From Escherichia coli (GTDB lineage Bacteria > Pseudomonadota > Gammaproteobacteria > Enterobacterales > Enterobacteriaceae), in the NCBI RefSeq assembly GCF_030384885.1, contig NZ_CP128615.1: 64,000 bases of DNA; one strand, written 5' to 3'. Shown here piece by piece: positions 2,828 through 53,439 of the stretch. The position numbers and the translations under genes were made by a program. The first letter of the stretch is position 1; every line of letters starts with the position of its first letter. The notes beneath the pieces were generated by a model. The model was not told the DNA's origin and ran no database searches. It saw only the letters and a list, made by a program, of their open reading frames with translations.

Positions 2828-5800
2828 TTGTTTTTATTATCTATTATGAAAGAATTAAAAAAGTTTAATAGATATGTCATGTGTTTCTTTTTGGGGGCTC
2901 GCTTAGCATACGCCGAAAGTATTGACGGTAGCAGTACCATTAATAATAGGGATATCTCCGGATCATTAAATATAGGGGTTTGGAAAGATGCAAGTGTTAA
3001 CATTAATGGCACTGTAAATATTAAACAATATTTTTCGGTAGCTACTTGTAATGGTCAATCAAGCACCTGCCCTACTGGTGGATTAAATGCATCAGCAAAT
3101 ATTAATAACTCTGCAAAGGTAGGTGCAAGTGTTACTATTGTTGGCGACTCTTCAAAGGGAATATTAGATATAGATGGTGGTAGCTCTCTATATACACAGC
3201 AATTATGGGTCTCTGGAAATGATAACGACAAAACCAGTAATTTCAGTGATGACAGTAATGGTTCATTGAAAATTAACAATGGAAGCAATGTTTTTGTCGT
3301 ATTATCTCAAGATAATACCCCATTTAAAGATAACCCGATAAAATGGGATCAAAAAATTATTTCACAAGGAAATAATATAACAGATGGGACGGTTTCCTCC
3401 GGGGATTTAGTCTTGGGTAAAACTGGCAATGGTATTATTGACATAGATAACAAATCAAGACTAGATGTAAAAAATGATGTGGTTGTATCTACGGGGGTCG
3501 ATGGCATTCCTAATGAAAAACCTTCGCTTATAAATATAAATAATGAAAGTGATTTCTTGATTCATGGAAACATGAAAGGAGGGATTTCTGCTGCAGGCAA
3601 GTTACAGTTAAATATGGATAGTAGTTCCAATCTGCGTGTTGATAACAATATTACTGTGGGGATTGGGAGTGGATCAGATATTTCTGTGAGTGCGGCTAAT
3701 GGAAGCTCTATATCTGCAACTGGTGATTTCACTGTAGCTACAGGAGATAATTCGAATGCTAATTTAAATTTAGATGCTTCAAACCTGACAGTGAATGGAG
3801 TTTCTACCATAGGAAGTGGAAATGGCTCCACAACTAAATTTGATATTCAGAATAGCTCTGTTGTAACAAGCGGCAGTGGTATGACTTTGGCTAAAGGTAA
3901 GGGTACACAGGCCAATATAAATATATCCTCTTCGAAGTTAAATACTGGTTCGCTATCAGTTGGTGAGGGAGAGGCTGCTAAAGTCACAATGACCGGAAAT
4001 GGAGCTACCGTTAGCACCGGTAATTCCTTCACTGTTGCAAAAGGTAATAATGCATCCGCGACGCTGGATTACACTGATTCGGAAATTGATATCGGTAGTG
4101 GTTATATCGGAGAGGGCGACGCTGCTGAGACCCAGCTGGAGCTGAATAATTCGAAACTGACTGCCAGTGATAAGGTATTTATCGGGCAGGGAGATACAAC
4201 CCAAACAAACCTGACATTAAATAATCATTCGTCAGTAAATGTGTCCGGTGAGATGTCAGTGGCCCGGGGAAGTTCTGCTTCGGTTGATGTGACTGTTACT
4301 AATGCAATGTTGTCTGCTGACTCTCTGTCTCTTGGTGGAGGAGAAGCTGCTAAAGTCACAATGACCGGAAATGGAGCTACCGTTAACAGCGGTAATTCCT
4401 TCACTGTTGCAAAAGGTAATAATGCATCCGCGACACTGGATTACACTGATTCGGAAATTGATATCGGTAGTGGTTATATCGGAGAGGGCGACGCTGCTGA
4501 GACCCAGCTGGAGCTGAATAATTCGAAACTGACTGCCAGTGATAAGGTATTTATCGGGCAGGGAGATACAACCCAAACAAACCTGACATTAAATAATCAT
4601 TCGTCAGTAAATGTGTCCGGTGAGATGTCAGTGGCCCGGGGAAGTTCTGCTTCGGTTGATGTGACTGTTACTAATGCAATGTTGTCTGCTGACTCTCTGT
4701 CTCTTGGTGGAGGAGAAGCTGCTAAAGTCACAATGACCGGAAATGGAGCTACCGTTAACAGCGGTAATTCCTTCACTGTTGCAAAAGGTAATAATGCATC
4801 CGCGACACTGAATTACACTGATTCGAAAATTGATATCGGTGGTGGTTATATCGGAGAGGGCGACGCTGCTGAGACTCAGCTGGAGCTGAATAATTCGGAA
4901 CTGACTGCCAGTGGTAAGGTGTTTATTGGGCAGGGAAATACAACCCAAACAAACCTGACATTAAATAATCATTCGTCAGTAAATGTGTCCGGTGAGATGT
5001 CAGTGGCCCAGGGAAATTCTGCTTCGGTTGATGTAACAGTCACTAATGCAGTGCTGTCTGCTGACTCTCTGTCTCTTGGTGGAGGAGAGGCTGCTAAAGT
5101 CACAATGACCGGAAACGGAGCAACGATTAGCAGCGGCAATACTTTCACGGTCGCAAAAGGTAATAACGCATCTGCAGCGCTGGACTACTCTGATTCAAAA
5201 ATTAATATCGGTAATGGATATATCGGTGTGGGCGAAAAATCTCATACATTACTAAAACTGGACAACTCAATTTTCCATGCCGCTGGGAATATTGATATAG
5301 GTAAAGGCAGCTCTACTATAGCTACTGTTTCTGTCGGGGCTGGTAGTAATATGTCAATAAAAGGGAATGCTAGTATTGGCGTTGGAGATCAGGCTAAAGC
5401 AAAGTTTTCAGTAAAAGATAGTGTGCTGAATATAGGTAGTAGTCTGGTTCTCGGACAGGGGAATAGTACCGAAGCAGAAATGTCTGTTGAGCATTCTCAG
5501 CTTTATAGTGGTAGCCTGTTGCTTGGGACGGCTAACAATGCTGTCGTTTCTATGGATGCTAATGATGCAGGGATATCTGTCGTGGGAGATTATATAGTAG
5601 CAAAAGGTGATGGTTCAGAAGCTACGTTGATTTATAAAAACTCAGATATTAATCTTGGGAATGGTATACTAGGTGCTGGTTCCGGAGTAAAAACAGATTT
5701 ATCATTGGATAACAGTAAATTTGTTGCATCTGATGGAATAATCATCGGTGAAGGTGATAATGCCATAACTAATCTTTCTATCTCTGATCACTCTGTGTTT

Positions 5801-7783
5801 AAAGGAGAACGTATAAATATTGGTAATGGTGCATATTCAAAAAATTCTATAAGTATAACCGGAAATTCCATATTTGATTTCGGATCATCTCAGGAATCAA
5901 CCATTGGTGAAGGTGATTACAGCCAGTCGTTAGTTACCATTAATGATGCATCAGTTTATGGTGATGGTTCATTAACTCTGGCAAAAGGTAATAATAGTTT
6001 TGCAGTACTGAATCTTCAGGATAATGCAGTGACTAATGCCAACAACATTTCACTTGCTACAGGACTGGGCAGTAAAGCAATCGTGAATGTTAGTAATATG
6101 AATTCCGGACAGTTCAATCCTGTATCTATGGGAGCAGGAGATGGTTATGCGGAAGTAAATTTTGATGGTGTTAATGGCTATACACTCTCAACTAATTTCA
6201 TTTGTATGGATTCCGGTTCATGTGCAGACACTGTCATAAATGTAAACAGAGGGACAGTTTCTCTGTCAGGAACAAATGACTGGAAAGGGCAGATAAATGT
6301 TTATGACGGAACCCGACTGGATGCAAGGGGGAATGATGCCGTTGATGGTATACTGAATGTCAGCAAAGAAGCACAGGTTGACTTTAACGGATACTCGCAG
6401 CATATGACAGGGATAGATAATAAAGGGATGATTTATCTTTCTGACGGAAGTGCTTCATCAGATGTGTATCTGGATAAAGATTATGTTGCACATGATGGTT
6501 CCGGTGTACAGTTCGGGATTTTCGGGCAGAAAGAGGCGGATGTGATGCATGTTAAAGGTGATACATCCGGGAGTTCAGGTATAGTTGTCACGACAAACAG
6601 TAAAAATAAAATAAAGAAAGGTGGCGACATTCTTCTTGTTGAGGTTAATGGGGACTCATCAGGTAGTTTTTACCTTAACTCACTGATTAAGAATGGTAAG
6701 GAGTATAAGGTGACAGGTGACTACATTGATGTGGGGGCCTGGGAGTATGCGCTGAACAAGAAAAGGAAGAATTGGTATCTGAGTGTGGATATGCGTCCTG
6801 AGCCAGGTGCGTTTATAAACAATAGTAAAAGTATGTTAGATATGTTTGCTCTACAACGGTATGACATACCCGGGCAACATCGTTATCCTACATTGTTTGA
6901 AAACTTATATAACAATGGGATGTGGATTCAATTTAACAACAACTCAGGTAGTAATAGTGAGGTGTATGATAATCTCAAGACCAGTTATAGTTTAAATACT
7001 ATGATGATTGGAGGGGATATATACAATTGGACTGATGGATATAACTATTCACATATCGGGATAATGGGCGGGATGGGGAGTGCCGCTAACAAAACAACGT
7101 CAACAAATAATAAAAGAGCTACCGGAAATGTAGACGGTTATACTCTTGGGCTTTATCATGTATTTCAACAAAATATCAGTGATGGACTAAATGAGTCAGA
7201 ACGTCAGGGGCTGTGGACTTATTCGTCTATACAATACATGGATTATGATAACAGCGTCAGTTCAACAAATAATTTCAAGGCTAATTATGGTGTAAATGGT
7301 TTTCGCCTGACAGGTGAGGTTGGTTATCTAAAAAATATAGGTGGCATACAACCAAGCGATTTCTACGTTGAACCTAAGTTATACCTTTCGCATACTGAGT
7401 TGTCTGGAGGTGTAGTTGAAGATCTTCAGGGAGGGAAAATAACTTATCCGAATTCGCTAACTATTATTGAACCAGGAGTATTTTTCTCTTATCGAAAAAC
7501 TCATGAATCGACTTCCAATGATGAAGCAATGTTTAAAGATTATATAAAACAATCTGTAGTCGATGCATGGTTTGGTGGGGGGTATTCATTTAAAACTGGA
7601 AATTATAGTCGTACTAACTTTGATTCAGATATGGTTGAATATAATACATCGGATAATTTCGCTCTTAAGAGTGGTGTTGAATTTGAATTTTTGAAGGATG
7701 CACGTCTTTTATTAACATCCTCATACTCAATAAATAATGATCGCAACTTGAGTTTTATTCTTGGTGGCAATTATTATTTTTAA
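2828..7783 (+). CDS. Autotransporter (type Va) adhesin-like protein with repetitive beta-helical passenger and C-terminal beta-barrel
   Basis: 1651-aa ORF; N-terminal signal-like segment ending LAYAES (start may be the Met at 2846); Gly/Asn/Ser/Thr-rich repeats; C-terminus ends in aromatic ...NYYF typical of autotransporter barrels; AT-rich. Confidence 0.8.
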   Translation: MFLLSIMKELKKFNRYVMCFFLGARLAYAESIDGSSTINNRDISGSLNIGVWKDASVNINGTVNIKQYFSVATCNGQSSTCPTGGLNASANINNSAKVGASVTIVGDSSKGILDIDGGSSLYTQQLWVSGNDNDKTSNFSDDSNGSLKINNGSNVFVVLSQDNTPFKDNPIKWDQKIISQGNNITDGTVSSGDLVLGKTGNGIIDIDNKSRLDVKNDVVVSTGVDGIPNEKPSLININNESDFLIHGNMKGGISAAGKLQLNMDSSSNLRVDNNITVGIGSGSDISVSAANGSSISATGDFTVATGDNSNANLNLDASNLTVNGVSTIGSGNGSTTKFDIQNSSVVTSGSGMTLAKGKGTQANINISSSKLNTGSLSVGEGEAAKVTMTGNGATVSTGNSFTVAKGNNASATLDYTDSEIDIGSGYIGEGDAAETQLELNNSKLTASDKVFIGQGDTTQTNLTLNNHSSVNVSGEMSVARGSSASVDVTVTNAMLSADSLSLGGGEAAKVTMTGNGATVNSGNSFTVAKGNNASATLDYTDSEIDIGSGYIGEGDAAETQLELNNSKLTASDKVFIGQGDTTQTNLTLNNHSSVNVSGEMSVARGSSASVDVTVTNAMLSADSLSLGGGEAAKVTMTGNGATVNSGNSFTVAKGNNASATLNYTDSKIDIGGGYIGEGDAAETQLELNNSELTASGKVFIGQGNTTQTNLTLNNHSSVNVSGEMSVAQGNSASVDVTVTNAVLSADSLSLGGGEAAKVTMTGNGATISSGNTFTVAKGNNASAALDYSDSKINIGNGYIGVGEKSHTLLKLDNSIFHAAGNIDIGKGSSTIATVSVGAGSNMSIKGNASIGVGDQAKAKFSVKDSVLNIGSSLVLGQGNSTEAEMSVEHSQLYSGSLLLGTANNAVVSMDANDAGISVVGDYIVAKGDGSEATLIYKNSDINLGNGILGAGSGVKTDLSLDNSKFVASDGIIIGEGDNAITNLSISDHSVFKGERINIGNGAYSKNSISITGNSIFDFGSSQESTIGEGDYSQSLVTINDASVYGDGSLTLAKGNNSFAVLNLQDNAVTNANNISLATGLGSKAIVNVSNMNSGQFNPVSMGAGDGYAEVNFDGVNGYTLSTNFICMDSGSCADTVINVNRGTVSLSGTNDWKGQINVYDGTRLDARGNDAVDGILNVSKEAQVDFNGYSQHMTGIDNKGMIYLSDGSASSDVYLDKDYVAHDGSGVQFGIFGQKEADVMHVKGDTSGSSGIVVTTNSKNKIKKGGDILLVEVNGDSSGSFYLNSLIKNGKEYKVTGDYIDVGAWEYALNKKRKNWYLSVDMRPEPGAFINNSKSMLDMFALQRYDIPGQHRYPTLFENLYNNGMWIQFNNNSGSNSEVYDNLKTSYSLNTMMIGGDIYNWTDGYNYSHIGIMGGMGSAANKTTSTNNKRATGNVDGYTLGLYHVFQQNISDGLNESERQGLWTYSSIQYMDYDNSVSSTNNFKANYGVNGFRLTGEVGYLKNIGGIQPSDFYVEPKLYLSHTELSGGVVEDLQGGKITYPNSLTIIEPGVFFSYRKTHESTSNDEAMFKDYIKQSVVDAWFGGGYSFKTGNYSRTNFDSDMVEYNTSDNFALKSGVEFEFLKDARLLLTSSYSINNDRNLSFILGGNYYF
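3952..5230. repeat. Tandem array of about 3.4 near-identical 372-bp (124-codon) coding repeats inside the autotransporter passenger
   Basis: Protein repeat LSVGEGEAAKVTMTGNGATV...NAMLSADS recurs; DNA copies at about 4256-4627 and 4628-4999 differ by only a few bases; antisense ORFs recur at 372-nt spacing. Confidence 0.9.
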
Positions 7784-20473: not shown

Positions 20474-21470
20474 CTACAGCTGGTTGTATTTCGCGAACTC
20501 CTTCGCACTCTGTTTGAGGATAATTTTGTAGGAGGAGTTACCCCATGCCGCGCGGGCAGCACTGGAAGCCTTGTCAGAGTCAAAGTCGACGATGTTCTGT
20601 GTGATGGTGATATAGGCACCGGTATGACGGCGGGCGGTACGGTAACCTTTCTCAATAAATTCACCGACCTTGTGATTTTTGAAGTCCAGCAGACGCCAGC
20701 CTTCATCAATGACGTTCAGTTTCTTGAGGTTACGCGGCGTGCGGTACATCCGGTTCTCAATGTAAATGATAAGGCTGAACATCACCGCAACCAGCAGGGA
20801 CGGACGGTCTTCCAGTCCGCCCAGCTCCAGCACCACCATTTTCGCATCATCCCGCAGGGACGGCTCATCGGAGTTGAAATACTGGCCATAAGTGCCGTTA
20901 GCAGTGTACTGGTCAAGCAGCACAATCATTTCGTCCAGACGGCTGCGGATGGTCGGTGACTCGGCATACTGCTCGCTGTCACTGGCGTTTTTCAGGAAAT
21001 CCACCACGTCATCAATACGTGCCCTGTTCTCTTTGGCCAGCCATGATGCCCTGACTGCCTGCAGCAGCAGACCTTCATGCACTTCATCCAGGTTACCGTT
21101 GGGGCTGGCCATCACCGACAGCTGGTCGCGGACACGCTCCGCTGACTGGTCAATATCGGTGATGTTCGCAAACGGGTTAAAGCGCAGGGTTTCACCGTCC
21201 AGATATACGCCCCCCATGTTCTCACACAGGGACTTGTAGCCATCCCCCATGTCGAACACCACGGCAAAGCCCCCGGAGTCCAGCACGCTGCGGATAAGTG
21301 GCTGTATCAGCCCGGTTTTACCGGCCCCGGAGGTGCCACAGACCGCCATGTTATAGTTGGTGTTATTCATCCCCCGGAAGAAAATATCGATAAACGCCAG
21401 CTGGTTACGGTAGGTGGGTGCCAGCAGACCTGCCGGTGTCAGGGGGTTATCCGCCACTACCCCAGATGTC
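20474..21470 (-). pseudogene. traC: Internal fragment of an F-type conjugative ATPase TraC (VirB4 family)
   Basis: Walker A-containing segment NMAVCGTSGAGKTGLIQPL and surrounding sequence recognised as TraC-like; both ends of the protein missing, no other tra genes in the window. Confidence 0.5.
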
Positions 21471-21884
21471 ACACCAGTCACCTCTTTTTGCGGTGAAATG
21501 CACAGTGATGATTTCCCTGACATCATCCGGTAATCCTTCCCAGCGACGCTGTCCAGTACCGCTCTGCAGCCAGAGTTTATGCAGCATCAGGCAGTTTTGC
21601 TCATCCAGCAGTACACCGTCCTGCAGGTATGTCAGCCAGCGGGTGAACGCGATATTCTCCGGCGATACAACGCCACGCCCGGCAGCCGTCAGTCCGGGGC
21701 ATGGTTCAAACCGCACATCTTCAGTGGTCTGCAGAAGTCCGGCACTTCCGGCCAGAAACAGCTGAATACCTTCATTTGTGGCGCGGCGATAAAGCGGTGT
21801 GACTGCACCGCTGGCCAGTCGTTTAATCTCAGCAATCTGTGCCGGTTCACCAGAAAAATGCATACGATTTGAGCACCAGTTTGG
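21447..21884 (-). CDS. Hypothetical protein
   Basis: ORF with GGAG RBS before the ATG at 21884 (MPNWCSNRMHF...); overlaps the TraC fragment by about 80 bp. Confidence 0.4.
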   Translation of the reverse strand, partial: PNWCSNRMHFSGEPAQIAEIKRLASGAVTPLYRRATNEGIQLFLAGSAGLLQTTEDVRFEPCPGLTAAGRGVVSPENIAFTRWLTYLQDGVLLDEQNCLMLHKLWLQSGTGQRRWEGLPDDVREIITVHFTAKRGDWCDIWGSGG

Positions 21885-22241
21885 CATGGGAATTCTCCTC
21901 TCACATGCGGCCTCTATCAGGCCGTGCCGCACCTGTAACCGGGCGACCGCATACGAATGCAGGTGCGGCCCCGAAGCCGCAGCGCGTGGAGGAGGAACGA
22001 CGAAACGTGACCGGGTGAGGAGGCCGGCGACAGCGACACACTTGCATCGGATGCAGCTCGGTTAACGTGCCGGCACGGCCTGGGTAACCAGGTATTTTAT
22101 TCACAGAACCGTGCGCAAAATGCTGTGGATAAGCTGGACACAGCAGTCCACAGCAGGCATACAGCCACACCCTCAGAGAATTGAGCGTTTTTTAGTCACA
22201 ATAATGACATTTGACTGTGTGTGGATTCAGTTATTAGAATA

Positions 22242-22257
22242 CTGTATATACATACAG
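22242..22257. promoter_or_regulatory. LexA (SOS) box upstream of impC
   Basis: CTGTATATACATACAG matches CTGT-N8-ACAG; TTGACT -35-like hexamer at 22211. Confidence 0.65.
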
Positions 22258-22280
22258 CAATAGAAAAGGGAGATGAGAAC

Positions 22281-22529
22281 ATGATCCGCATTGAAATTCT
22301 TTTCGACCGCCAGAGCACAAAAAACCTCAAATCAGGCACACTTCAGGCGCTACAGAATGAAATCGAACAACGTCTGAAACCACACTCCCCGGAAATCTGG
22401 CTGCGTATAGACCAGGGCAGCGCCCCGTCTGTATCTGTCACAGGAGCCCGCAACGACAAGGATAAAGAACGTATCATGTCTCTGCTGGAAGAAATCTGGC
22501 AGGACGACAGCTGGCTGCCTGCAGCATGA
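22281..22529 (+). CDS. impC: ImpC (DinI-like small SOS protein)
   Basis: 82-aa ORF from the ATG at 22281 with GGGAGA RBS; first gene of an imp/umu-type operon. Confidence 0.75.
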   Translation: MIRIEILFDRQSTKNLKSGTLQALQNEIEQRLKPHSPEIWLRIDQGSAPSVSVTGARNDKDKERIMSLLEEIWQDDSWLPAA

Positions 22530-22963
22530 GTACCGTTTATCACCGTCCGGCTGACCCTTCAGGCGATGACAGTTACGTGCGACCGTTGTTTGCCGATCGT
22601 TGCCAGGCCGGTTTTCCTTCGCCTGCCACTGATTATGCTGAGCAGGAACTGGATCTGAACAGCTATTGCATCAGCAGACCTGCAGCCACCTTCTTTCTGC
22701 GCGCCAGCGGTGAATCGATGAACCAGGCTGGCGTGCAGAATGGTGATCTGCTGGTAGTGGACAGGGCCGAGAAACCACAACACGGGGACATCGTTATCGC
22801 TGAGATCGACGGTGAGTTCACCGTCAAACGACTGCTGTTGCGCCCACGCCCGGCACTGGAGCCGGTTTCAGACAGCCCGGAATTTCGCACACTGTATCCG
22901 GAAAACATCTGTATTTTTGGTGTTGTCACTCACGTGATACACAGGACGCGGGAGTTACGCTGA
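22526..22963 (+). CDS. impA: ImpA/UmuD-like protein (LexA-type S24 peptidase)
   Basis: 145-aa ORF with Ser/Lys self-cleavage region (GESMNQAG...VKRL); 4-bp overlaps with both neighbours. Confidence 0.85.
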   Translation: MSTVYHRPADPSGDDSYVRPLFADRCQAGFPSPATDYAEQELDLNSYCISRPAATFFLRASGESMNQAGVQNGDLLVVDRAEKPQHGDIVIAEIDGEFTVKRLLLRPRPALEPVSDSPEFRTLYPENICIFGVVTHVIHRTRELR

Positions 22964-24233
22964 TGTTTGCACTGGCTGATATCAACAGTTTCTACGCCTC
23001 ATGTGAAAAAGTTTTCCGCCCGGACCTTCGCAACGAACCGGTCATCGTACTCAGCAATAACGATGGCTGTGTGATCGCGCGCAGCCGGAGGCAAAAGCCC
23101 TTGGCATCAGAATGGGGCAGCCCTGGTTTCAGGTGAGACAGATGCGCCTGGAGAAGAAAATACATGTATTTTCCAGCAATTATGCGCTGTACCACAGCAT
23201 GAGCCAACGGGTCATGGCTGTTCTGGAGTCGCTTTCTCCCGCAGTTGAGCCCTACTCAATTGATGAAATGTTCATTGATTTGCGGGGGATAAATCATTGC
23301 ATCTCTCCGGAGGTTTTTGGTCATCAGCTCAGGGAACAGGTAAAGAGCTGGACAGGACTCACCATGGGGGTGGGCATTGCGCCTACAAAAACGCTGGCTA
23401 AAAGTGCACAGTGGGCAACAAAGCAATGGCCACAGTTTTCCGGTGTGGTCGCGCTGGAGGCAGAAAACCGTAATCGGATCTTGAAGCTACTGGGGCTGCA
23501 GCCAGTTGGTGAGGTCTGGGGAGTAGGACGCAGACTGACGGAAAAGCTGAATGCGCTGGGTATTAACACAGCACTGCAGCTGGCGCAGGCTAACACGGCA
23601 TTCATCCGGAAAAACTTCAGCATCATTCTTGAGCGTACGGTACGCGAACTCAACGGCGAGTCCTGCATATCCCTGGAAGAAGCACCACCGGCAAAACAGC
23701 AGATTGTCTGTAGTCGCAGTTTTGGTGAACGAATCACAGACAAAGATGCCATGCACCAGGCTGTTGTTCAGTATGCAGAGCGGGCCGCAGAGAAACTACG
23801 TGGGGAGCGTCAGTATTGCCGGCAGGTGACGACATTTGTACGGACATCCCCCTTTGCAGTAAAAGAACCCTGTTACAGCAATGCCGCTGTGGAAAAGCTT
23901 CCATTACCCACACAGGACAGCCGGGACATTATTGCCGCAGCATGCAGAGCGTTAAACCATGTCTGGCGTGAAGGGTACCGCTATATGAAGGCAGGAGTCA
24001 TGCTGGCTGATTTCACACCATCGGGTATAGCGCAGCCGGGATTATTTGATGAGATCCAGCCCCGTAAAAACAGCGAAAAGTTAATGAAAACACTCGATGA
24101 ACTGAACCAGTCTGGAAAAGGGAAAGTGTGGTTTGCGGGGCGAGGAACCGCCCCTGAATGGCAAATGAAACGGGAAATGCTCTCGCCTTCGTATACAACA
24201 CAATGGACTGAGATCCCCATTGCTTCATTCTGA
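22963..24233 (+). pseudogene. impB: ImpB/UmuC-like Y-family polymerase, interrupted by a 1-nt frameshift near 23086
   Basis: N-terminal 57 codons (MFALADINSFYASCEKVFRPDL...NDGCVIARS) in one frame stop at 23136; the rest (MGQPWFQ...) continues in another frame from 23112. Confidence 0.8.
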
Positions 24234-24237
24234 TATA

Positions 24238-24666
24238 TCAGAATAATTTTTGCATTTTAAGGCGCACATCATTCATTGCCTCCTGCACCGAATCAGTAGC
24301 AGAAGGAGGCATTTTTTCAGCAGATTGCAAAGCACCGAGTTCAGTCAACACAGCTCTGATATCGGCCTGAGAAGGCTTCCATCCTGTCGTCTGACTGAGT
24401 AAGGTTACAACCTGATCTGCTGAAAACTCCTCGCTCAAAATGGCAGTCAGCAATACAGGCAGGCGAGGATCAAGTTGGTGTAACGCCATTCCAGAAATAA
24501 ATGCATTCCGGAACAGCTCACCACGCTCAGAACGCGGAACGGACTCTATCGCTTCCAAAGCTTGAAAGTCTGCAGCTTTTTCCGGATGCAGATAAAGTGT
24601 GAATTTTTTCCTTTTCCGTTCATCGTCCACAATATTACTCCTCTTTGAAAGCCGCGATAGCTTCAA
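24238..24666 (-). CDS. ParR/StbB-like partition adaptor (type II system)
   Basis: Small ORF directly downstream of the ParM-like gene; assignment by position and size. Confidence 0.5.
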   Translation of the reverse strand: MKLSRLSKRSNIVDDERKRKKFTLYLHPEKAADFQALEAIESVPRSERGELFRNAFISGMALHQLDPRLPVLLTAILSEEFSADQVVTLLSQTTGWKPSQADIRAVLTELGALQSAEKMPPSATDSVQEAMNDVRLKMQKLF

Positions 24667-31929: not shown

Positions 31930-32002
31930 CGCTGTAAAACAAAACAGGCGGTCTGGCGCTGCCGGACACTCTTTCAGTCAGCGGTATATAAAGGAATAAA
32001 AG

Positions 32003-33565
32003 ATGCCTCTGATCACGCGGCTTATGCTGCAAAACTTTAAAAAGTTTCCGGAACTGGACCTGCGCTTCACTCATGACCGTAACATTCTGGTCGGGGATAA
32101 TGAGTCCGGGAAAAGCACGATTCTGCTGGCCCTTGACCTTGTGCTGAGCGACAGCCGGCACCGGGTCGAGGCATTGGGTGTGGAATCGCTCCTGTCCCAG
32201 TCAGCAGTCAGGCAGTTTCAGGAAGGTGAGCGCCGCGCCGATCGGTTACCCGTGCTGACAGCTGATGTTTTCCTGAGTAATGGGGGAGATCCTGACCTGA
32301 ACGGCAGGCAAAATCTGGCGGGTATCGATGCGGATGGTCTCAGAATGCGCATTGCACCCATGACGGAGGAATACGGTCAGGATATACATCATGTCCTGCA
32401 GCAGGATCCCGATAATTTTCCCTATGAATACTATTCCGTGCGGTTCAGCACCTTCTCCGGGGGGCATTTTGCCGGCTTCAGACGCTATCTGCGCCATCTG
32501 CTGTTAGACAGTGCACGCATCGATAACGAGCACGCCGCACAGGAATATACGCGCACAGTTTACAGCGTCAATGTGCCGGTAGCCGATCGGTACCGGCTTG
32601 AAAACAGTTACCGGCAACAGAAAATGCACTTCTGCACCCGGCATCTGTCAGCCATAAACGACACGCTGGATACGTATCAGTTTGGCGTGCGTTCCGGTGC
32701 TAAATCAGGTCTTGAGGCGAATCTGGACATTACCGAGGACGGTATTTCCATTCGTCACCGTGGAAAAGGAAGGCAGTGCTTCATCAAAACAGAGTTTGCA
32801 CTGCAGCGGCATCAGCAGCAGGGAGAGCTCCACGCACTGTTGCTTGAGGAGCCGGAGAATCATCTCAGCCATGTCAGTATGAAGAGGCTGGTTAATCAGC
32901 TTGCAACTGAACGGCAGACGCAGGTGTTTATTGCCACACACAGCAGCCATATCTCATCCCGCCTCGATCTGCGTAAGGCAATCCTCCTCGGGTCTGCCCG
33001 ACCGGTACTGATGAATGAACTTTCCGCTGAGACTGCCGCCTTCTTCATGAAAGCACCGGACAATAATGTGCTGGAATTTGCGCTGGCCAGACGTGTGCTG
33101 CTCGTGGAGGGGGATGCTGAGTTTATTCTGATCGAGGCCTTTTATCGCCGCCTGTATGGCAGGTCGCCGGAGGATGACGGGGTTCACATCATCGCTATCG
33201 GCGGAACGAGTTTCCGTCGTTATCTTGAACTGGCCCGTCTTCTGGAAAATCGCGTCGCGGCCCTTCGTGATAATGACGGCAACTATCAGCAAAACTGCGA
33301 TGAACGCTATGCTGACGTGCTTTGTTCCCGCTCCCGGGTATTTGCTGATCGCGATAACACCCGATCCACATTTGAAATCTGCCTGTATCAGGATAACGCT
33401 GGTCTGTGTGATGCGCTTTTCCGCGGAACACGCCGGACACTCACGGTGCAGGAATACATGCTGGCCAATAAGGCAGAAGCAGCATTCCGGCTGTTACAGC
33501 TGCACGCCGAAGAGCTGACAGTACCTGATTATATTCAGGAGGCACTGGCATGGATAAGAGAGTGA
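32003..33565 (+). CDS. OLD-family ATPase/TOPRIM nuclease (GajA-like)
   Basis: Walker A GDNESGKST, Walker B-like LLLEEPENH, H-loop IATHSSH, TOPRIM-like LLVEGDAEF and ALRDNDG. Confidence 0.65.
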   Translation: MPLITRLMLQNFKKFPELDLRFTHDRNILVGDNESGKSTILLALDLVLSDSRHRVEALGVESLLSQSAVRQFQEGERRADRLPVLTADVFLSNGGDPDLNGRQNLAGIDADGLRMRIAPMTEEYGQDIHHVLQQDPDNFPYEYYSVRFSTFSGGHFAGFRRYLRHLLLDSARIDNEHAAQEYTRTVYSVNVPVADRYRLENSYRQQKMHFCTRHLSAINDTLDTYQFGVRSGAKSGLEANLDITEDGISIRHRGKGRQCFIKTEFALQRHQQQGELHALLLEEPENHLSHVSMKRLVNQLATERQTQVFIATHSSHISSRLDLRKAILLGSARPVLMNELSAETAAFFMKAPDNNVLEFALARRVLLVEGDAEFILIEAFYRRLYGRSPEDDGVHIIAIGGTSFRRYLELARLLENRVAALRDNDGNYQQNCDERYADVLCSRSRVFADRDNTRSTFEICLYQDNAGLCDALFRGTRRTLTVQEYMLANKAEAAFRLLQLHAEELTVPDYIQEALAWIRE

Positions 33566-34572
33566 TATTTGCGGTTGCCGGCTCGGGCAAGACCACGCTG
33601 CTGATACAGCGGTTGAGTGAGGACCGGCGGACGCTGATCCTGACCTTCACCGTGAATAATGAAGCGCATCTCCGGGCGCAGATTATCAGACGTTTTGGCT
33701 TTATCCCGGACGGGATCAGGGTGATGACCTGGTTTGAGTTTCTGCACGGTTTTTGCTTCAGGCCTTTCCTGCAGGAGCAGCTGGCATCGCGTGGGCTGAG
33801 CTTCGACCAGCCCCCACCCAGAATACCGCGCACGAATGCCCGGCATTATCAGGATCCCGCCGGACGGCTGTATCACCGGAGGCTCGCACACTTACTCACA
33901 GCCCGGGGGCTGCTGCCAGATATCCGTACCCGGCTTGCCCGTTACTACGATGAACTGCTTGTCGATGAAGTCCAGGACTTTGCCGGACATGACTTTAATT
34001 TTCTGCTGGAGCTCTGCCGCGCGGAAATCACTGTGCTCTGTTGCGGCGATTTTTATCAACATACCTTTGATACAAGCCATGACGGCAACGTTAATTCAAC
34101 GCTGCACGATGACATTACGCGATATGAGGCCCGCTTCGACGCAGCAGGTTTCACGGTTGACCGGGACACGCTCAACCGGACATGGCGTTGCTCAGCTTCA
34201 GTGTGCGAGTTTATCACCGGACAACTGAACATCCGTATCGCTGCCCATGGGATACATGCCACCCTGATTGAAACGATCACAGATGCAGAGCGCACAGCCA
34301 CCCTGCACGCCGATAATACGGTGATTAAGCTCTTCTATCGTGAACATCACCGTTACGGCTGCTATTCCATGAACTGGGGCGTCAGTAAAGGGCTCGACCA
34401 CTTTCAGGATGTCTGCATTGTGATGGGATCTTCCCACTGGAAGCTTCTGACCCGTCAGGAACTGGCAGCCCTTCCACCGTCGTCCCGTAACAGGCTGTAC
34501 GTGGCATGCTCACGGGCGCGCGGCAACATTTATTTTGTTCCCGAAATTCATCTGCGCCGATTCCGGAACTGA
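33550..34572 (+). CDS. Compact SF1/UvrD-like helicase (GajB-like)
   Basis: Motifs AVAGSGKTT (I), LLVDEVQD (II), GDFYQ (III), YVACSRAR (VI); 16-bp overlap with the upstream nuclease gene. Confidence 0.6.
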   Translation: MDKRVIFAVAGSGKTTLLIQRLSEDRRTLILTFTVNNEAHLRAQIIRRFGFIPDGIRVMTWFEFLHGFCFRPFLQEQLASRGLSFDQPPPRIPRTNARHYQDPAGRLYHRRLAHLLTARGLLPDIRTRLARYYDELLVDEVQDFAGHDFNFLLELCRAEITVLCCGDFYQHTFDTSHDGNVNSTLHDDITRYEARFDAAGFTVDRDTLNRTWRCSASVCEFITGQLNIRIAAHGIHATLIETITDAERTATLHADNTVIKLFYREHHRYGCYSMNWGVSKGLDHFQDVCIVMGSSHWKLLTRQELAALPPSSRNRLYVACSRARGNIYFVPEIHLRRFRN

Positions 34573-38325: not shown

Positions 38326-40401
38326 TCAATTAACCCCAAGCGCCTTAAACACGGCATCGACGGGGTCTGCATAAAAGCTGATCTGGAATTTTGAGAACAA
38401 CTCAGCAGGAACCGTTGGAATATCTGAGGCTGAGGCCATTGGGAGCAAAATACGCTTTGCGCCACTGTCCATAGCTAACTGAAGACTGCCTGCAAGATCT
38501 TGAACAGGATTGACGACACCACCTAAAGTCATCTCACCCAAAACAACCATCTGCTCTTGAATCGGTCGGTTCATCAGAATTGAACAGAACGCAATTAATG
38601 CAGCGAGCGATGACTTTGTACTTGGCCCCGTATTGTGGAGCTCAACAACATGGAGGTGATACTCATGATCAGAAAACTTCGCCGACGCACTGATTCTATT
38701 CAGGTTACCTTTGAAATAATCAAAGCCAACACGCACAGCTTCTTTCGCTGCGGTATTCGAACCAAGGCCAGACACTGAGTGTTTACCAGAACCAGCCATC
38801 ATCTGGGTTTCATAGCGATATAACCCAAGCTGCCCAGTGCTTCCCTGAGTAACCAAGTGCACGACACCAGCGCGAGGTAAGCCCTCAGGAATTAGCTTGC
38901 TGCCACCTTGTTCCGGTACATTGATGAAGAATTCTTCTAATGAATCGTTATCGATGTAGCTAAAGTGCACATCAAAAAATTCCATTCCGCCAAGCTTTTT
39001 CAATTGCTCTTTGACTCTACGTCTAGTTTCCAGCGCATAGGTCAGGCAGGCTCTTACATCATCTTTTGTGTACTGTGCGTCGGGGTGTAGTAGCTTTAAC
39101 AAGCCCGAAACAGTTCTGCGTACAGCAATTACATCACGCTGATTAAGGTTATTACCGAGTTTGAAGAACTTATCGATAGCATCCGCAAAACTTCTTTTGC
39201 GCATTTCACGCATGTATTCAGCAAGATAGTCTGTGATTAATCCGTAACTATTGGTGAAAAACTCAGGACGCATCTTCGGTATTTCCCATCCAGGAATATA
39301 GGAATGGAAACGGTCAAAAAAAGCAGTGTCAATCATGGCTTCAGGAAAAGGTGCCAACAGATGACTGGTCTTCACCAGTGTCTCAACGCTTTGATTGATG
39401 TTACCGACGAATACCATGGAAGCCTTCGCTTCGATTGAATCACGACCACGGGCAAAAGACCCTGACGCCATATAATCTTTCATTATTTGGACGCCGTCTT
39501 TGTCTTTAAAGTTAATACCCGCTACTTCATCAAAGGCGACAACATCCCACATTCCGACCAACCCAACTTGGCGCGAGCTCATGTTATAGAACAAGTTCGC
39601 CACAGTTGTTTGTCCGCCCGAGACAAGCAATGAGTTTGGTGAGCACTCCTTGTAGACATGGCTTTTACCTGTCCCTCTTGGTCCGAGCTCACAAACGTTG
39701 TAGTTGTTTTCAACGAATGGGATCATACGAGTGATAAGATGCCATTTCACCCGATGCTCTAAGTTGGTTGGCTCCATACCCACGGAACGAAGCAACACAT
39801 CCATCCACTGATCGGTACTAAAATGTCTTCTGGTTGAAAACACCTCATCCATGTTCATGGACGGCATTTGTATCGGTTTTAAACTCATAATGGAGAAAGG
39901 TGATGTCTTCTGACCTTCCTCAAAGAAATACTGGACGGTAATAATGCACCAGATGCCGCCAGTTAATAATTTTTCGTTGTCTTGTACTATTTTGGTCGGT
40001 ACAAGGGCATCCTTGATACCCAGGTTCGACAACGCAGCTTCATAGACGTCTTTTTTCTGGTTGAGCTTAACGCTTACTTTGTCGATGATTTTAAACGTGC
40101 CGCGTTCACGGATCAGTGACTTCACTTTCTCCGCTTCATCTGGTCGGACATAGTTCTCAGCCAAGATTTTTTTTACATTATCAAGGCCTTGCATTACAAC
40201 TTCGTCGTCATCGGACGCACAATACATGCCTAGTAAATACTCAAGCACATAGACAGGGACGTTAGCGCCTTCTTTCAATTGCTTTGTCAGATCTTTTCGA
40301 ACGACACGGCCTTTAAAATATTGGTTGAGCAATGCGTCTAAATCGGCGCTTTGCATCTGATTTTTTTCGTCTTTATGATCTTGTGAAAAATCAGTTGTCA
40401 T
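38326..40401 (-). CDS. brxL: BrxL (BREX Lon-like protease/ATPase)
   Basis: 691-aa ORF, last gene of the BREX operon; P-loop GPRGTGKSH and C-terminal Lon-protease-like domain. Confidence 0.85.
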   Translation of the reverse strand: MTTDFSQDHKDEKNQMQSADLDALLNQYFKGRVVRKDLTKQLKEGANVPVYVLEYLLGMYCASDDDEVVMQGLDNVKKILAENYVRPDEAEKVKSLIRERGTFKIIDKVSVKLNQKKDVYEAALSNLGIKDALVPTKIVQDNEKLLTGGIWCIITVQYFFEEGQKTSPFSIMSLKPIQMPSMNMDEVFSTRRHFSTDQWMDVLLRSVGMEPTNLEHRVKWHLITRMIPFVENNYNVCELGPRGTGKSHVYKECSPNSLLVSGGQTTVANLFYNMSSRQVGLVGMWDVVAFDEVAGINFKDKDGVQIMKDYMASGSFARGRDSIEAKASMVFVGNINQSVETLVKTSHLLAPFPEAMIDTAFFDRFHSYIPGWEIPKMRPEFFTNSYGLITDYLAEYMREMRKRSFADAIDKFFKLGNNLNQRDVIAVRRTVSGLLKLLHPDAQYTKDDVRACLTYALETRRRVKEQLKKLGGMEFFDVHFSYIDNDSLEEFFINVPEQGGSKLIPEGLPRAGVVHLVTQGSTGQLGLYRYETQMMAGSGKHSVSGLGSNTAAKEAVRVGFDYFKGNLNRISASAKFSDHEYHLHVVELHNTGPSTKSSLAALIAFCSILMNRPIQEQMVVLGEMTLGGVVNPVQDLAGSLQLAMDSGAKRILLPMASASDIPTVPAELFSKFQISFYADPVDAVFKALGVN

Positions 40402-40417
40402 GTTTCACCTCAGCGCC

Positions 40418-43090
40418 TTAGAAAAAATCATCTTGGAATGCCAAATCAATGGTTACCGCGTATTGGCTATAACGGGTTCTCATTTCCGCATTCTCAAGAA
40501 CTAATGTGTATTGAGCGTTTCTATCGAACTGGGAGCCAATAAGCTTTAACCTAGCTTCGCGAGTACGTTCATCCATCACTTTACTCACGCTATCAAAGTT
40601 AATCGTTTCACGACTGGAGACTTCATTACCTTGTGCATCGACGATATAGACATCCAACAACCGTGCGACGAAACGCTCGCCTACAGGGTCTGTCTGAATA
40701 AATCTGACCTTGTCGATATTGTTTACTAATTTGATGGGCTGAGTGGCTGCTACAACACCTACCGGTTGTTTCTCATGTTTTGCTGCTTGTTCTTTTTGTA
40801 GCTCTCGCACATGTAGTACCGGTACGCAGACTTCCTGTAGCATCGCTCCGCCATGCACAAACTTAGCACCACCAACGAAGTGGAAGCGTTGAGCCGCTTT
40901 TGGAAGCAGGAACTCGGTATCACTTGAGCCATGAGCCGTATCGTTAATTGAGCCTTTCCAACAGGCTTCATCTGAAGGCAAGTTATTACCAACGATATAA
41001 CGTTTCTTGGCTTCTATCGCTCCAGCAGGTTTGGTTTTCAACGAGGTTTTGTCAGCCGCTACAAGTGCTTTTTGTTGGAAGAGGAAGCCATGGTCAGCAG
41101 TGATCACAACTCGGCTGCCGTTTAGACGGTTGATGACCCGCCCAACGAGGTCTTTTAGCTCTTCAATGGCACTACGACAGGCTTCAAACGTTTTCTCTTC
41201 AGTTGCTGCCTTATCACCAATCGCATCAATGGTATCGTGATAGATATAAACGACTTCTACGTCTCGAACCTTGTCACGCCCCTCCTGGTTACTCCAGCTC
41301 ATCAGTTCCTTAGAACTCACTGCCATACCACCTACTTTTTGTAGGATGGCGTTGCGGTTGTCTAGACCCTGTGAAGAAATACCATCCACATAAACAGCCG
41401 TGCCTTGCTCTGGCTGGTAACTGAGCGCCTTATGAGGCAATAATGCCGCCATCCCAAGTTGGGTATAACTCGGCAAAACGCCCAACTGCGTAGACACCTC
41501 AGCCTTAAATCGCTTCTCGTTGTTAATGATAGCGCCAAGCTCATTCGCAATTTCAAAACGCAGGGCATCAGAGATGATCACAAACACTCGTTTTGTCTGT
41601 TTCAGACTCAGTCGTGTGCGAACTTCTTTTTCATAGAAGTCATACTGGTGCGGTACGCCAGAAATCTGCCACTTTTCAAGTAATTTTTCATTGGCCAAGT
41701 GACGATCCCATGCAAGGCCAAGCTCATACAAGTACCAGTTGGTATAAATGCTTTCGACTTCGTCGTCGAGCTGACGCAGTATGTCTGCACCTTTACTCAA
41801 TACAGAGTGCACATGCTCATTGAACAAACGGTAAGCCTGGTCAAAACGATAAATGTCTGTGGTATAGGCGTCGTACATTGCTTTCGCGTTATCAAAGTGG
41901 AACCCATCCACATAGCGATTTCGCAAGTGCATTAACTCTTCAGCGTTGCGGATAGCTTCATAAATTGCGAAGTATTCTTTGCGTGACAATGTCCAGTGGC
42001 TAGAAAGACGTCTTGATAAGACCGTATCAAACTGAACCCGGTCTAGCGCTTTACTGCTATCGAGCAAATCACGAACTAAACCACGGATTATGGCCTGTTC
42101 CACAGCTTCGAACGTTTCGCATTCGATAAGCTCAACCGGATGGTACTGCCCAGCACGAGTCGAAATTTCCAACTGTTGGCTAAGCACCTTAGAGATGCTT
42201 TCGTAGTAAGCGGCGAAAGAGCGGCTGTCGCGCCAGCTCACCATAAACGCCAAGGCTGTCGCCCGGCCTGATGCGCTTTTTAGAACATTGTTAAGCAACC
42301 AATCGCGTTCAACACCTTCAATTTGGCTCCAGAATTCAGTACAGAATAATTTCAACACGAAGTCTGAGAAGGTTGGCTCTTCAACTGTATAGCCAAAACC
42401 CTCACTCAGATATGCCCAGAGTGAGGTCTCAAGATCAAACTTTCCTAGCTGGCTCCATAAAGGTTGACCAAGGCTTTCATCTTCGATATAAGCCGCATAT
42501 TCGCGTAGTAACCCAAGCAGAATGTCCGACAAAGACGCAGAATCAGCTTTTACAACCACTGCCATCATCTTTCTGTCTAACGACAGTTCGTCTTCGTTCT
42601 CAGTCACCCACTTTTTTAAACCGGCTATGCGCTGTTTATTGGCAAAAAAGCTCTGGCGCTTACGAATGTGCGTGCGAAGCGCCATTTTCGGAATACCCAG
42701 CTCATTAAGCAGCATTGAGCTGTGATCAGCAAAAAACTGCTCGCTATACAAACGCACGTCTAGCAACCAATCGCGGTCAGGCTCTGGCTCAGCGCTTGGA
42801 AAATAGATAAGGAATTTAGCTTCACGCTCATCTACTTCAATGCGTTTTTTCACTGCCAATACAGACTCATTGCCCATATTGAGGATGGTCAAATCATTTG
42901 GAAGCACCCGTGCAGTTTTATCCGCCGATTTATCGTCTGTTTCTTTTGCAAGCCCTTCTTTTGCAATAGAGAGGGCGTTAGCTAAATGCTCAAGCTCTTC
43001 AGTAAAGCTTTGCTCTGGGTCGTACCAAAACACAATGCGGCTTTGTTCAAATTTGGCAGCAACGCCTTGTGCCAGTTCACTAATCTGCAT
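40418..43090 (-). CDS. pglZ: PglZ (alkaline-phosphatase-superfamily BREX protein)
   Basis: 890-aa ORF with ITADHGF motif. Confidence 0.85.
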   Translation of the reverse strand: MQISELAQGVAAKFEQSRIVFWYDPEQSFTEELEHLANALSIAKEGLAKETDDKSADKTARVLPNDLTILNMGNESVLAVKKRIEVDEREAKFLIYFPSAEPEPDRDWLLDVRLYSEQFFADHSSMLLNELGIPKMALRTHIRKRQSFFANKQRIAGLKKWVTENEDELSLDRKMMAVVVKADSASLSDILLGLLREYAAYIEDESLGQPLWSQLGKFDLETSLWAYLSEGFGYTVEEPTFSDFVLKLFCTEFWSQIEGVERDWLLNNVLKSASGRATALAFMVSWRDSRSFAAYYESISKVLSQQLEISTRAGQYHPVELIECETFEAVEQAIIRGLVRDLLDSSKALDRVQFDTVLSRRLSSHWTLSRKEYFAIYEAIRNAEELMHLRNRYVDGFHFDNAKAMYDAYTTDIYRFDQAYRLFNEHVHSVLSKGADILRQLDDEVESIYTNWYLYELGLAWDRHLANEKLLEKWQISGVPHQYDFYEKEVRTRLSLKQTKRVFVIISDALRFEIANELGAIINNEKRFKAEVSTQLGVLPSYTQLGMAALLPHKALSYQPEQGTAVYVDGISSQGLDNRNAILQKVGGMAVSSKELMSWSNQEGRDKVRDVEVVYIYHDTIDAIGDKAATEEKTFEACRSAIEELKDLVGRVINRLNGSRVVITADHGFLFQQKALVAADKTSLKTKPAGAIEAKKRYIVGNNLPSDEACWKGSINDTAHGSSDTEFLLPKAAQRFHFVGGAKFVHGGAMLQEVCVPVLHVRELQKEQAAKHEKQPVGVVAATQPIKLVNNIDKVRFIQTDPVGERFVARLLDVYIVDAQGNEVSSRETINFDSVSKVMDERTREARLKLIGSQFDRNAQYTLVLENAEMRTRYSQYAVTIDLAFQDDFF

Positions 43091-46000
43091 TAGTTAACCT
43101 CCGGGGCCGAACCGGTAATGGCCTTAACATCAGCCAACAGATCACCAAACTTGCCGTAATTCACTTTCACGCCATCATCCAAATCCAGTGAAATACGCAT
43201 ATCAGCGTAGTGTTTTAGCTTGTCATCAAACTCGCGTAGTTCAACCTGTTTCTTGATTAAGGCATCCAACTCTTTCTTGAAGCGGTTCGCTTCACTGGTC
43301 GAGTCTGCCGTTTCAATCTGCTTCTCAAGCTGCTCTGCATAAGCATCGTATTTGCCGAGTAACGGGGTGACATACTCGGTACGCATACGCGAAAGCGTGC
43401 CCTCGTTGTAACGGTGCAGGTAAACCAGGCACTCAAAAGCCTTCTGTTTGCCTGAGCTAAACAACCAATAAATAGGACGTTTTTTGTATGTCTTCAGGTG
43501 GTCTTTGTAGAATTGAGTCGATAAATAGCGGCGGATCGTCTCAAGAGCTGATTCTGATTTTTTGGGCTTTATGGCATTTAAGCACAGAGACTCTGCAACA
43601 AAATCGAGATTTTCTTGTAAGTGTTCTTCACCCCAAACAACTTGGACAAACTCGCGGAAACGATTGGTTGCGTCGTCCTTGAACCATTCTTGGTCGGTTA
43701 GGGGAATGATGCCATTTTCGTCGGCAGCAAAAGATTGATAAGCACCTTCGGCAACGAGTTTATCAAACCCATAATTACAAGCATGAGCGTAGACTAAGCC
43801 TTCACGATCAAGAGAGTAACGCCCCATCATGCAACCAATGGAGTAACTAATGAGTTCACAGGTTGTATCAGATTTTAACTTACTTAAATCAGTAGAATTT
43901 TCATATCGAAAAGCAGGGTTAGCAAATAATGATAGTGTTGAAATATCTATTGAAACCGGCACCGAAATTCCAAAATCATTGCATATTAAAGAATTAACTT
44001 CACTTTCCAAATTGGCTTGTTCATTAACTAGATTTAACTTCACTTCATTTAGAACCTGATAAGATTCAGCAATTTTGGCACGTTTTATTTTACACAGAGG
44101 CGAACATTCAAAGTTCCATGACGTTTCGTACATATCCCAATCAACCTTTGCGTTGGAAATTAAATCGCTCACCTTTTCAAACAATGCTTCTTTGTCAGCC
44201 TTATTGAAAATTGCCGGCAATGAGGCTATTTGACTCGTTTCATAGTTAAGCGTTGGCGAAATGATTTTTAACTGTTCCAGCACTACAGATGAGTTTAACT
44301 GAGCCAATAAGGCATATTCTTCAATTCGAGAATTAAGAAATACTGATGCACCTGCAACGTCAAATATCGCTCCTTCAGGCTGCCATCTGAACGATGGAAT
44401 TCCACTCGAAATTTTTGACCAAGTTACTGAGCTACGAAAATAAAATGCACCATTTTTCACAGTTCTAGTAGGAGACCCATACAAACTTTTAGCGTATGCA
44501 AATACCTCTTCACCTGCATTTTCCCAATTAATTACGTATTCCTGATTGCCATACCATTTTCTATATGAACCGCCTTTATTATATGGAAACCATTTGAATC
44601 CTGAGGATTCAGCTTCATCTTTAGAACTAGAGTCATACATTGAGGTGTTTACTGGAACTTCATGCCATAGCCTTAAGAATCTATTATTATCACTTGTTTG
44701 ACACCCAACTCTAGTTTTAGCAACTGACGATATTGGCGCGTCCATAAATGTATTTAATATTTCCTTGGCAACCCAATAAGCAATCGGACTCCCAGGAATC
44801 TTTTTGAAATCATCCTGAGCTGTCGCTGCAAATTCATTCTCTCTATTGAGCAATGCTTTTTGCTTTTCTTCTTCATTGCCATCTATCAGCCTATAAAAGG
44901 TAGGTTGATAATGATTGATGTGCTTATTTTGAATAATCCAGGCAGTAGTCTGTACAACCTCGCCACTAATCTGACTAAAAGCGCGTGCACCGAGGTGAGC
45001 CATAGTAATAAATGTATGGTCTTCCAATAAATTGTTTCTTAGTTGCTCATAACTCGACAAGAACATCCACGATTGCATATTGATTTGAGCATTAAATCCA
45101 TATTGAGAAAGCAATTTAAATGCTCGCTCCATAAAAATGGCAAACAAGTCTGATTTACTATTTGGGTATTGTTTCTTAGCAAACTCTTTCAAATCTGCAT
45201 TCATTCCTTTTGCTCCCATATAGGGAGGATTAGCAATCACAGCATCGTAACGAATAGATAAAACCAAAGCCTGGTGAACAAACTCAATCAATTGCTTCGC
45301 TGCCAGCTTCTGCATTGAGTCGCCTGACTCTTGTAGCTCTACTAGCGTGCTCAGGAGCTCTTTTAGCTGTTCATGGTCATCGCTTGGTACATCAATCAAT
45401 GAACCAAAGGTCTTGGCTTGAGTAAATCTTGCCAACGTTCGCTTCAGCAGTTGGTAGCGGTTGTCTGCATTGAACGAGCTTAAATCTTGCTCTTCGTCAG
45501 AGAACAGTCCTTGTGATGTGCCGCTTTGCCAACTTCCCGATAGGTTGAGTGCTTTCCATAAGGTCGGCAGATCAATATGGTTACTTTCCTGCAATGACAG
45601 TACATTGAGTCGCACGTTACGGGTAAAAATACGCTTGTCGTCATCTCTCGCCATCATCATCAGGGCAAAGCCAGATAGCTGTGCTGCACGATCATCTATG
45701 TCCAAGCCGAAGAGGTTGTTCTCCAGGATCATCTTTGGAATGTCACGAGAGCGGAAACCACGTTCTTCGTAGATGGCTTTTAGTACGTTGTAAGCTTCAA
45801 TCAGTATGTGGCCCGAGCCACAAGCGGGATCGAGTACTTTGATGGTTTCAGGTTCAATCGATTCTGGCGTAATAGCCTTTAGCTGTTGGTTAACTTCGTC
45901 AGATTGCTGCGCAGGCTCAATGTAGTATTCCATCTGGCTTTTAATGGCAGAGTCTGGGTAGGTTTGCAGCCATTGACGACCGACTGAGTTTTGTACCAGG

Positions 46001-46758: not shown

Positions 46759-46773
46759 ATGATCTTGCGCCTC

Positions 46774-48537: not shown

Positions 48538-48553
48538 AGTTATCCGTTGCCTC

Positions 48554-52231: not shown

Positions 52232-52249
52232 TCGGGAGGCTCCCTGCTC

Positions 52250-53430: not shown

Positions 53431-53439
53431 AAATTCATC

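Follow-up and report, generated by a model that had tools for sequence, protein, structure and literature searches.

The window (the whole 64-kb stretch of Escherichia coli DNA analysed here) very probably carries an impC-impA-impB operon that is plasmid-borne, repressed by LexA and of the TP110/R64 type, and whose last gene, impB, has become a genuine pseudogene. The identities of the genes, the lesion in impB, its inheritance and its rarity were established by the present analysis. The frameshifted allele itself is already known, since RefSeq annotates it as such, and it represents an ordinary pseudogene in a textbook operon. The features of the operon are listed in Table 1, together with the impB lesions found in other plasmids.

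Table 1. Features of the imp operon in the window (window coordinates) and impB lesions of other plasmids (impB nucleotide numbering)
Feature	Position	Strand	Basis, content or record
-35 hexamer TTGACT of the imp promoter	22211..22216	+	sequence match
Weak secondary LexA box AACTGAATCCACACACAGTC	22213..22232	-	read from sequence; overlaps the -35 hexamer and the spacer
-10 hexamer TAGAAT	22235..22240	+	sequence match
Strong LexA box TACTGTATATACATACAGCA	22240..22259	+	18/20 matches to TACTG(TA)5CAGTA; adjoins the -10 hexamer
impC, 82 aa, DinI-like, intact	22281..22529	+	Pfam DinI PF06183, E=1.1e-16
impA, 145 aa, UmuD-like S24 self-cleaving subunit, intact	22526..22963	+	Peptidase_S24, E=3e-24
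impB 5' fragment, 57 codons then TGA at 23134-23136	22963..23136	+	IMS domain positions 2-40 only
Frameshift site, CC instead of the CCC of intact copies (codon 42, Pro)	23085..23086	+	alignments
impB 3' part, -1 frame, codons 43-423 and stop	23087..24233	+	IMS positions 49-146, IMS_HHH, IMS_C, DUF4113
22-bp deletion	impB nt 92-113		MF344576
Loss of one G	impB nt 153-156		LT795504
Loss of one A	impB nt 426-430		pO104_H21
Loss of one C	impB nt 883-887		CP023530
Loss of one A	impB nt 945		five records, USA, UK, Japan
Insertion of one T	impB nt 1017		CP122747
IS66 truncation	impB nt 1109		CP024146
ISKox3 insertion in impB			H50

The first two genes of the operon overlap by four nucleotides (ATGA), and their products align with DinI and UmuD. 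ImpC aligns to the structure of E. coli DinI (1GHH), while ImpA reached 143 bits against the NCBIfam model of the pol V autoproteolytic subunit (NF007621, cut-off 110). Alignment of ImpA to 8GMT and 1UMU placed Ala28-Gly29 opposite the UmuD cleavage site Cys24-Gly25, and Ser64 and Lys101 opposite UmuD Ser60 and Lys97. As both ImpC and ImpA are fully intact, the operon as a whole is not functionless.

Upstream of impC, the two promoter hexamers are separated by an 18-nt spacer and together form a sigma-70-type promoter with 10 of 12 matches, the top promoter-like site within 22000-24400. The strong LexA box contains the core CTGTATATACATACAG (CTG-N10-CAG, positions 22242-22257), and its 20-mer is the sole such match in the window, with none expected from shuffled sequences; the looser motif CTGT-N8-ACAG was observed four times against 0.65 expected. 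Both 20-mers upstream of impC are identical to those of the pTF2 impCAB promoter characterized in a 2025 study, which reported a heterology index of 1.60 for TACTGTATATACATACAGCA and of 13.49 for AACTGAATCCACACACAGTC (PMC12211044). In the same study, an SOS-hyperinduced lexA mutant carrying pTF2 had ImpC increased 21-fold, ImpA 9-fold and ImpB about 2-fold (PMC12211044). Because this experiment was conducted on an identical operator, that of pTF2 rather than of the present plasmid, the imp promoter of the window is likewise predicted to be under LexA control. Every feature given by an initial, sequence-only reading was found again here at its stated coordinates: an 82-aa impC at the head of the operon, in agreement with the coordinates and the DinI profile match; a UmuD-like impA with a 4-bp overlap, now backed by the S24 and NF007621 matches; a -35-like hexamer before impC, which is part of the 10/12 promoter match; and a LexA box upstream of impC. 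That reading was right about the strong box but recognized a single site, having overlooked the weak second box.

The impB ATG shares one nucleotide with the impA stop codon. The 5' fragment comprises codons 1-41 of the native sequence, which include Asp6 and Phe10/Tyr11, followed by 16 out-of-frame codons. Starting at 23061, the -1 frame stays open up to the TGA at 24231-24233, with a clear UmuC-like sequence, and encodes the HhH, little finger and DUF4113 as well as the region of Asp101/Glu102. What is established for UmuC and the Y-family polymerases assigns catalysis to Asp6 and Asp101/Glu102 and the steric gate to Phe10/Tyr11. According to the alignments that give these positions, Asp6 sits on the 57-aa fragment and Asp101/Glu102 in the other frame; a full-length Y-family ORF with Asp6, Asp101 and Glu102 on one chain is thus absent, being broken at codon 42. 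Both pieces have IMS domain matches, and an intact close relative reaches 791 bits on NF002955, the model of the UmuC subfamily; the UmuC homology of impB is unambiguous, as had been proposed at the outset.

Comparison with intact homologues defined the lesion to the base. Around codon 42, these homologues read CAGCCCGGAGG (also cited as AGCCCGGAGG), which is translated as ARSPEAKALGI, and the window reads CAGCCGGAGG; in the lesion alignment, intact copies have GCGCGCAGCCCGGAGGCAAAAGCC where the window has GCGCGCAGCCGGAGGCAAAAGCC, one C of a CCC run being gone. Putting the C back yields a 423-aa ORF identical to the intact WP_000457518 at 422 of 423 positions, the sole difference being residue 221. 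The frame arrangement described by the sequence-only reading (start at 22963, stop at 23136, continuation in another frame) agrees with the reading frames, and the alignment to intact homologues that it had proposed as a check bears out a single-base frameshift near 23086. The missing base, which it gave as a G, is a C of the CCC run, and its repaired peptide ARSAEAKALGI has Ala where intact homologues have Pro42. Insertion of a G giving that peptide is ruled out, since all intact homologues have the extra C. The arrangement in two frames is not shared by intact homologues either, more than 2,300 homologous copies carrying CCC.

The sequence-only reading had left it as an either/or whether the single-base loss is genuine or an error of sequencing. 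Long-read sequencing commonly introduces artefactual single-base indels at homopolymers, and other public impB frameshifts located in 4-5-nt runs could include such errors; impB might then be intact in the actual plasmid, with the frameshift confined to the record. The run concerned here is only 3 nt long, and database searches revealed the same deletion well beyond this record. A 70-nt probe across the frameshift site, of which an exact match denotes the deletion, matched 2,329 PLSDB plasmids, with CC in nine and CCC in the remainder. Among the RefSeq complete E. coli genomes, the deletion was found in seven of 1,681 matching records, which added one further plasmid, p5735-2. Altogether, the identical C deletion occurs in 10 public plasmid records and in one metagenome contig (OLFT01004938.1, JGI/ENA) that is 99.96% identical to window positions 21458-24179 without any gap. 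The carriers belong to different strains and hosts and were recovered from clinical, swine, bovine, cecum and wastewater sources, and all eight of the 10 plasmid carriers with a stated location are from China or Hong Kong.

These carriers also share their sequence background. Over positions 22180-24260, five of the six aligned carrier plasmids differ from the window by 1-2 differences and the sixth, the recombinant pPM4-5-103k, by about 10, while the closest intact copy (NZ_CP128593) shows four differences including the indel. The deletion is therefore linked to one haplotype and not scattered over impB lineages. One carrier, p5735-2, combines the identical deletion with a further loss of 792 bp inside impB (window-equivalent 23123-23914), as would be expected for a gene no longer under selection. 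Because the deletion recurs in separate records, is haplotype-linked and is followed by further decay in one carrier, the evidence favours a genuine inherited mutation, and it is this branch of the earlier either/or that gains support. It is very unlikely that a sequencing artefact in a run of 3 nt would turn up repeatedly on one haplotype only, and we give an error in the present record very little credence. The annotation of the allele by the RefSeq PGAP pipeline, "Y-family DNA polymerase; frameshifted", is in line with its designation as a pseudogene: the ORF is broken with respect to most close homologues, the lesion recurs on one haplotype and secondary decay is found.

NZ_CP024151 (p14EC033d, locus CR539_RS26030) and NZ_CP055056 have the same C deletion and are 99.9-100% identical to the window over 2,081 nt; compared with these RefSeq carriers, the window has one specific SNP, an A at 23622 (Ile221) instead of G (Val). 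No PLSDB record matches the window exactly: the nearest, NZ_CP055056, has a single SNP within the operon and departs from the window leftward of position ~21458. The deletion very probably arose a single time, within a small IncFIB/IncFIC plasmid lineage, and has been inherited vertically, the allele being also copied by recombination into an IncI-type plasmid. This last step is suggested by strain PM4-5, in which two plasmids, one IncFIB/IncFIC and one IncI-gamma/K1, carry the allele and are identical across window-equivalent ~22000-23800, with strong divergence outside. Gene conversion between co-resident plasmids would be the simplest reading of this pair, an artefact of assembly cross-talk being also possible. 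The frameshifted allele provides a handy lineage marker for this small group of IncFIB/IncFIC plasmids.

A real frameshift might still be compatible with some impB function if the two frames were joined during expression. They overlap over 23061-23136, and programmed -1 ribosomal frameshifting or transcriptional slippage could in principle produce a regulated, low level of full-length ImpB; as overexpressed impCAB is toxic, so low a dosage might be of benefit. However, no slippery heptamer of the X XXY YYZ type was found in this overlap zone (searched between 23056 and 23134), nor any homopolymer longer than 4 nt. The overlap offers only single-tRNA slip candidates, such as the A AAG at 23094-23097, which could permit trace -1 slippage to a full-length ImpB with PEA replaced by RRQ at residues 42-44; the conserved S-x-E-A-K segment of such a product would be altered at three residues. 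Moreover, the two-frame state is derived and concerns ~0.4% of copies, more than 2,300 homologues (>99%) being single-frame at the site, and in p5735-2 a 792-bp stretch of the downstream frame was subsequently lost. We regard recoding as highly improbable.

Function could also be retained by the fragments themselves. Ribosomes stopping at 23134 might reinitiate at Met50, whose ATG (23112) lies just 22 nt upstream of the 0-frame stop, and a 373-aa ORF beginning there still encodes the HhH, little-finger and DUF4113 domains. The resulting protein, devoid of residues 1-49 and possibly dominant-negative, might bind ImpA', RecA or the beta clamp as a modulator. Yet 23112 has no Shine-Dalgarno sequence before it, the reinitiated product would be without Asp6 and the steric-gate residues, p5735-2 has lost most of the Met50 ORF while keeping the rest of the operon, and other lineages break impB at many positions without conserving any particular fragment. 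A modulatory role of this kind is highly improbable. Overall, with no heptamer present and Asp6 separated from Asp101/Glu102, both recoding and a functional split gene appear improbable, and inactivation of impB is retained as the preferred reading.

The SOS response encoded by the window can be envisaged on these grounds. In the undamaged cell, the promoter would be blocked by LexA sitting on the strong box next to the -10 hexamer and, probably, on the weak one further upstream, at the -35 hexamer and spacer. Upon DNA damage, RecA would be activated and LexA would undergo self-cleavage, allowing transcription of the three translationally coupled genes. SOS induction should still yield ImpC and ImpA, and the latter, having kept its cleavage site and the Ser64/Lys101 dyad, could self-cleave on RecA* to ImpA'. 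The loss of C at codon 42 ends ImpB after 57 codons, parting Asp6 from Asp101/Glu102. Because the catalytic subunit is truncated, no ImpA'2-ImpB translesion polymerase of the pol V type would be expected to form, and the plasmid itself is expected to confer neither UV protection nor SOS mutagenesis. This loss of polymerase function and of the associated phenotype is what we infer from established UmuDC/pol V biology. In practice, the correct annotation is an SOS-inducible impC-impA pair followed by an impB pseudogene, and the plasmid should not be assumed to raise the UV tolerance or the stress-induced mutation rate of its host. Beyond annotation, the allele has little wider significance.

Lesions in impB are not restricted to this haplotype. 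A survey of plasmids that are intact at the codon-42 site yet have no impB CDS in PLSDB revealed at least eight other independent lesions (Table 1), or at least nine when the codon-42 deletion is counted, although faulty assembly may account for some of the one-base lesions that fall in runs of 4-5 nt. Sixty rows, which are not independent, were sampled across all 3,806 matching plasmids. Among them, the impB CDS was absent in six of the 32 full-length copies (~19%), while impA or impC was absent in none of the 32; 16 of the 60 rows had only a 469-bp impB remnant. As impB makes up 65% of the imp coding length, six losses out of six falling in impB correspond to P ~0.075, which is not significant against target size, and the samples are not independent.

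A TraDIS study found impCAB overexpression to be toxic and impB insertions to be enriched after conjugation, the latter effect being unvalidated (PMC10286972). Loss of impB might be recurrent and adaptive instead of neutral, a toxic or mutagenic impB being repeatedly discarded by plasmids while ImpC-ImpA are kept as a module modulating RecA and the SOS response. The number of independent lesions, the asymmetry between impB and its two neighbours, the toxicity of overexpression and the unvalidated TraDIS enrichment are all compatible with such a scenario, but target size alone could equally accommodate the asymmetry, and we hold adaptive loss to be rather unlikely. A literature search, with natural imp defects of Shigella beyond its reach, returned no relevant account of an impB frameshift or pseudogene. 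With so many independent impB lesions beside intact impC and impA, a systematic survey may be worthwhile if plasmid-borne mutagenesis is of interest.

Among known systems, the closest to the operon of the window is impCAB of the IncI1 plasmids TP110, R64 and ColIb-P9 (Lodwick, Owen & Strike 1990, as cited by PMC12211044), which has the same gene order, overlapping start and stop codons and a LexA-boxed promoter. Nucleotide identity with the R64 imp operon is 98.75% over 2,000 nt, and the R64 proteins are identical for ImpA (100%), at 80 of 82 positions for ImpC and at 411 of 423 for the repaired ImpB. The operon of the window departs from those of IncI1 plasmids by the frameshift at codon 42 of impB and by its IncFIB/IncFIC-type backbone; it further differs from the frameshifted RefSeq allele of p14EC033d and NZ_CP055056 by the extra SNP at 23622 and by another left junction at ~21458. 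By the background given in PMC7092418, the mucAB genes of pKM101 and samAB of Salmonella are plasmid-encoded, SOS-regulated UmuDC-like pairs; as described, they stand apart from the present operon in having no DinI-like first gene and in belonging to different sequence lineages. With the chromosomal umuDC and dinI genes of E. coli, the operon of the window shares the LexA-box logic, the residues for UmuD-type, RecA*-dependent self-cleavage and membership of the UmuC subfamily. In contrast to these chromosomal genes, it is borne by a plasmid, has its dinI homologue within the operon and encodes a polymerase subunit that is predicted to be inactive.

The impB frameshift allele, in which one C is lost from a CCC run (window 23085-23086), occurs twice in E. 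coli PM4-5, on the co-resident plasmids NZ_CP096831 and NZ_CP096835, of which one is IncI-gamma/K1 with NDM-5 and the other IncFIB/IncFIC. The imp segment, including the frameshift, is identical in the two plasmids over the equivalent of window positions ~22000-23800, whereas the flanks around this common segment diverge, a combination that suggests either gene conversion between the plasmids or cross-talk during assembly.

Decay of impB extends beyond this single-base loss. In p5735-2 (NZ_CP154889; 7913-8383), the frameshift is accompanied by an additional 792-bp deletion within impB, corresponding to window 23123-23914, and the RefSeq annotation splits what is left into two pseudogenes, both partial, named 'protein ImpB' and 'DUF4113'. 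A separate single-A deletion at impB nt 945, lying in the context ATTACCC and outside any homopolymer, is common to five plasmids from the USA, the UK, and Japan. Finally, in approximately one quarter of the sampled matching plasmids, all that is left of impB is a stretch of 469 bp, which corresponds to window 23711-24179.

Alignment of the plasmids carrying the frameshift revealed variation at window 22241, the second position of the 20-mer that forms the strong LexA box upstream of impCAB. The window, NZ_CP055056, and pPM4-5-103k have A here, and NZ_CP024151, NZ_CP045999, and CP101797 have G; the A/G change leaves the CTG-N10-CAG core unaffected but deviates from the TACTG consensus. A motif search of the window also identified LexA-like CTGT-N8-ACAG sequences elsewhere. 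One of these (CTGTTTATGGATACAG; 2030-2045) has the start of a tyrosine-recombinase gene 27 nt downstream and could reflect SOS control or chance.

To the left of the imp operon, the match of all close relatives to the window begins at 21458 and extends rightwards only. The DUF1281 gene left of this junction is shortened to 161 aa, compared with 300 aa in relatives, and adjoins a minus-strand fragment, 350 aa long, of a P-loop conjugation ATPase of the TraC/TraG type. The junction looks like a deletion or rearrangement point, and it was found in none of the PLSDB relatives inspected. Elsewhere in the window, a 1,651-aa ORF had no Pfam match at E<=0.001.

Coordinates of features in the window
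Feature	Position	Strand	Remark
1,651-aa ORF	2828-7783		TTG start
Tyrosine-recombinase gene	1263-2003	minus	
Junction region	20474-21932		junction near 21458
OLD-family ATPase/TOPRIM gene	32003-33565		
UvrD-like helicase gene	33550-34572		
BrxL	38326-40401	minus	BREX cluster
PglZ	40418-43090	minus	BREX cluster
pglX (PglX methylase)	43090-46758	minus	BREX cluster
GmrSD-like nuclease gene	46774-48537	minus	BREX cluster
brxC (BrxC)	48554-52231	minus	BREX cluster

The window also contains defence genes. The minus-strand region 38326-54366 is a type 1 BREX phage-defence cluster, in which the GmrSD-like nuclease gene is an insert separating brxC from pglX. A further CTGT-N8-ACAG motif (31932-31947) lies ahead of the OLD-family ATPase/TOPRIM gene, which is followed by the UvrD-like helicase gene with overlapping ends, and this pair resembles a Gabija defence pair; motif and pair together span 31932-34572.
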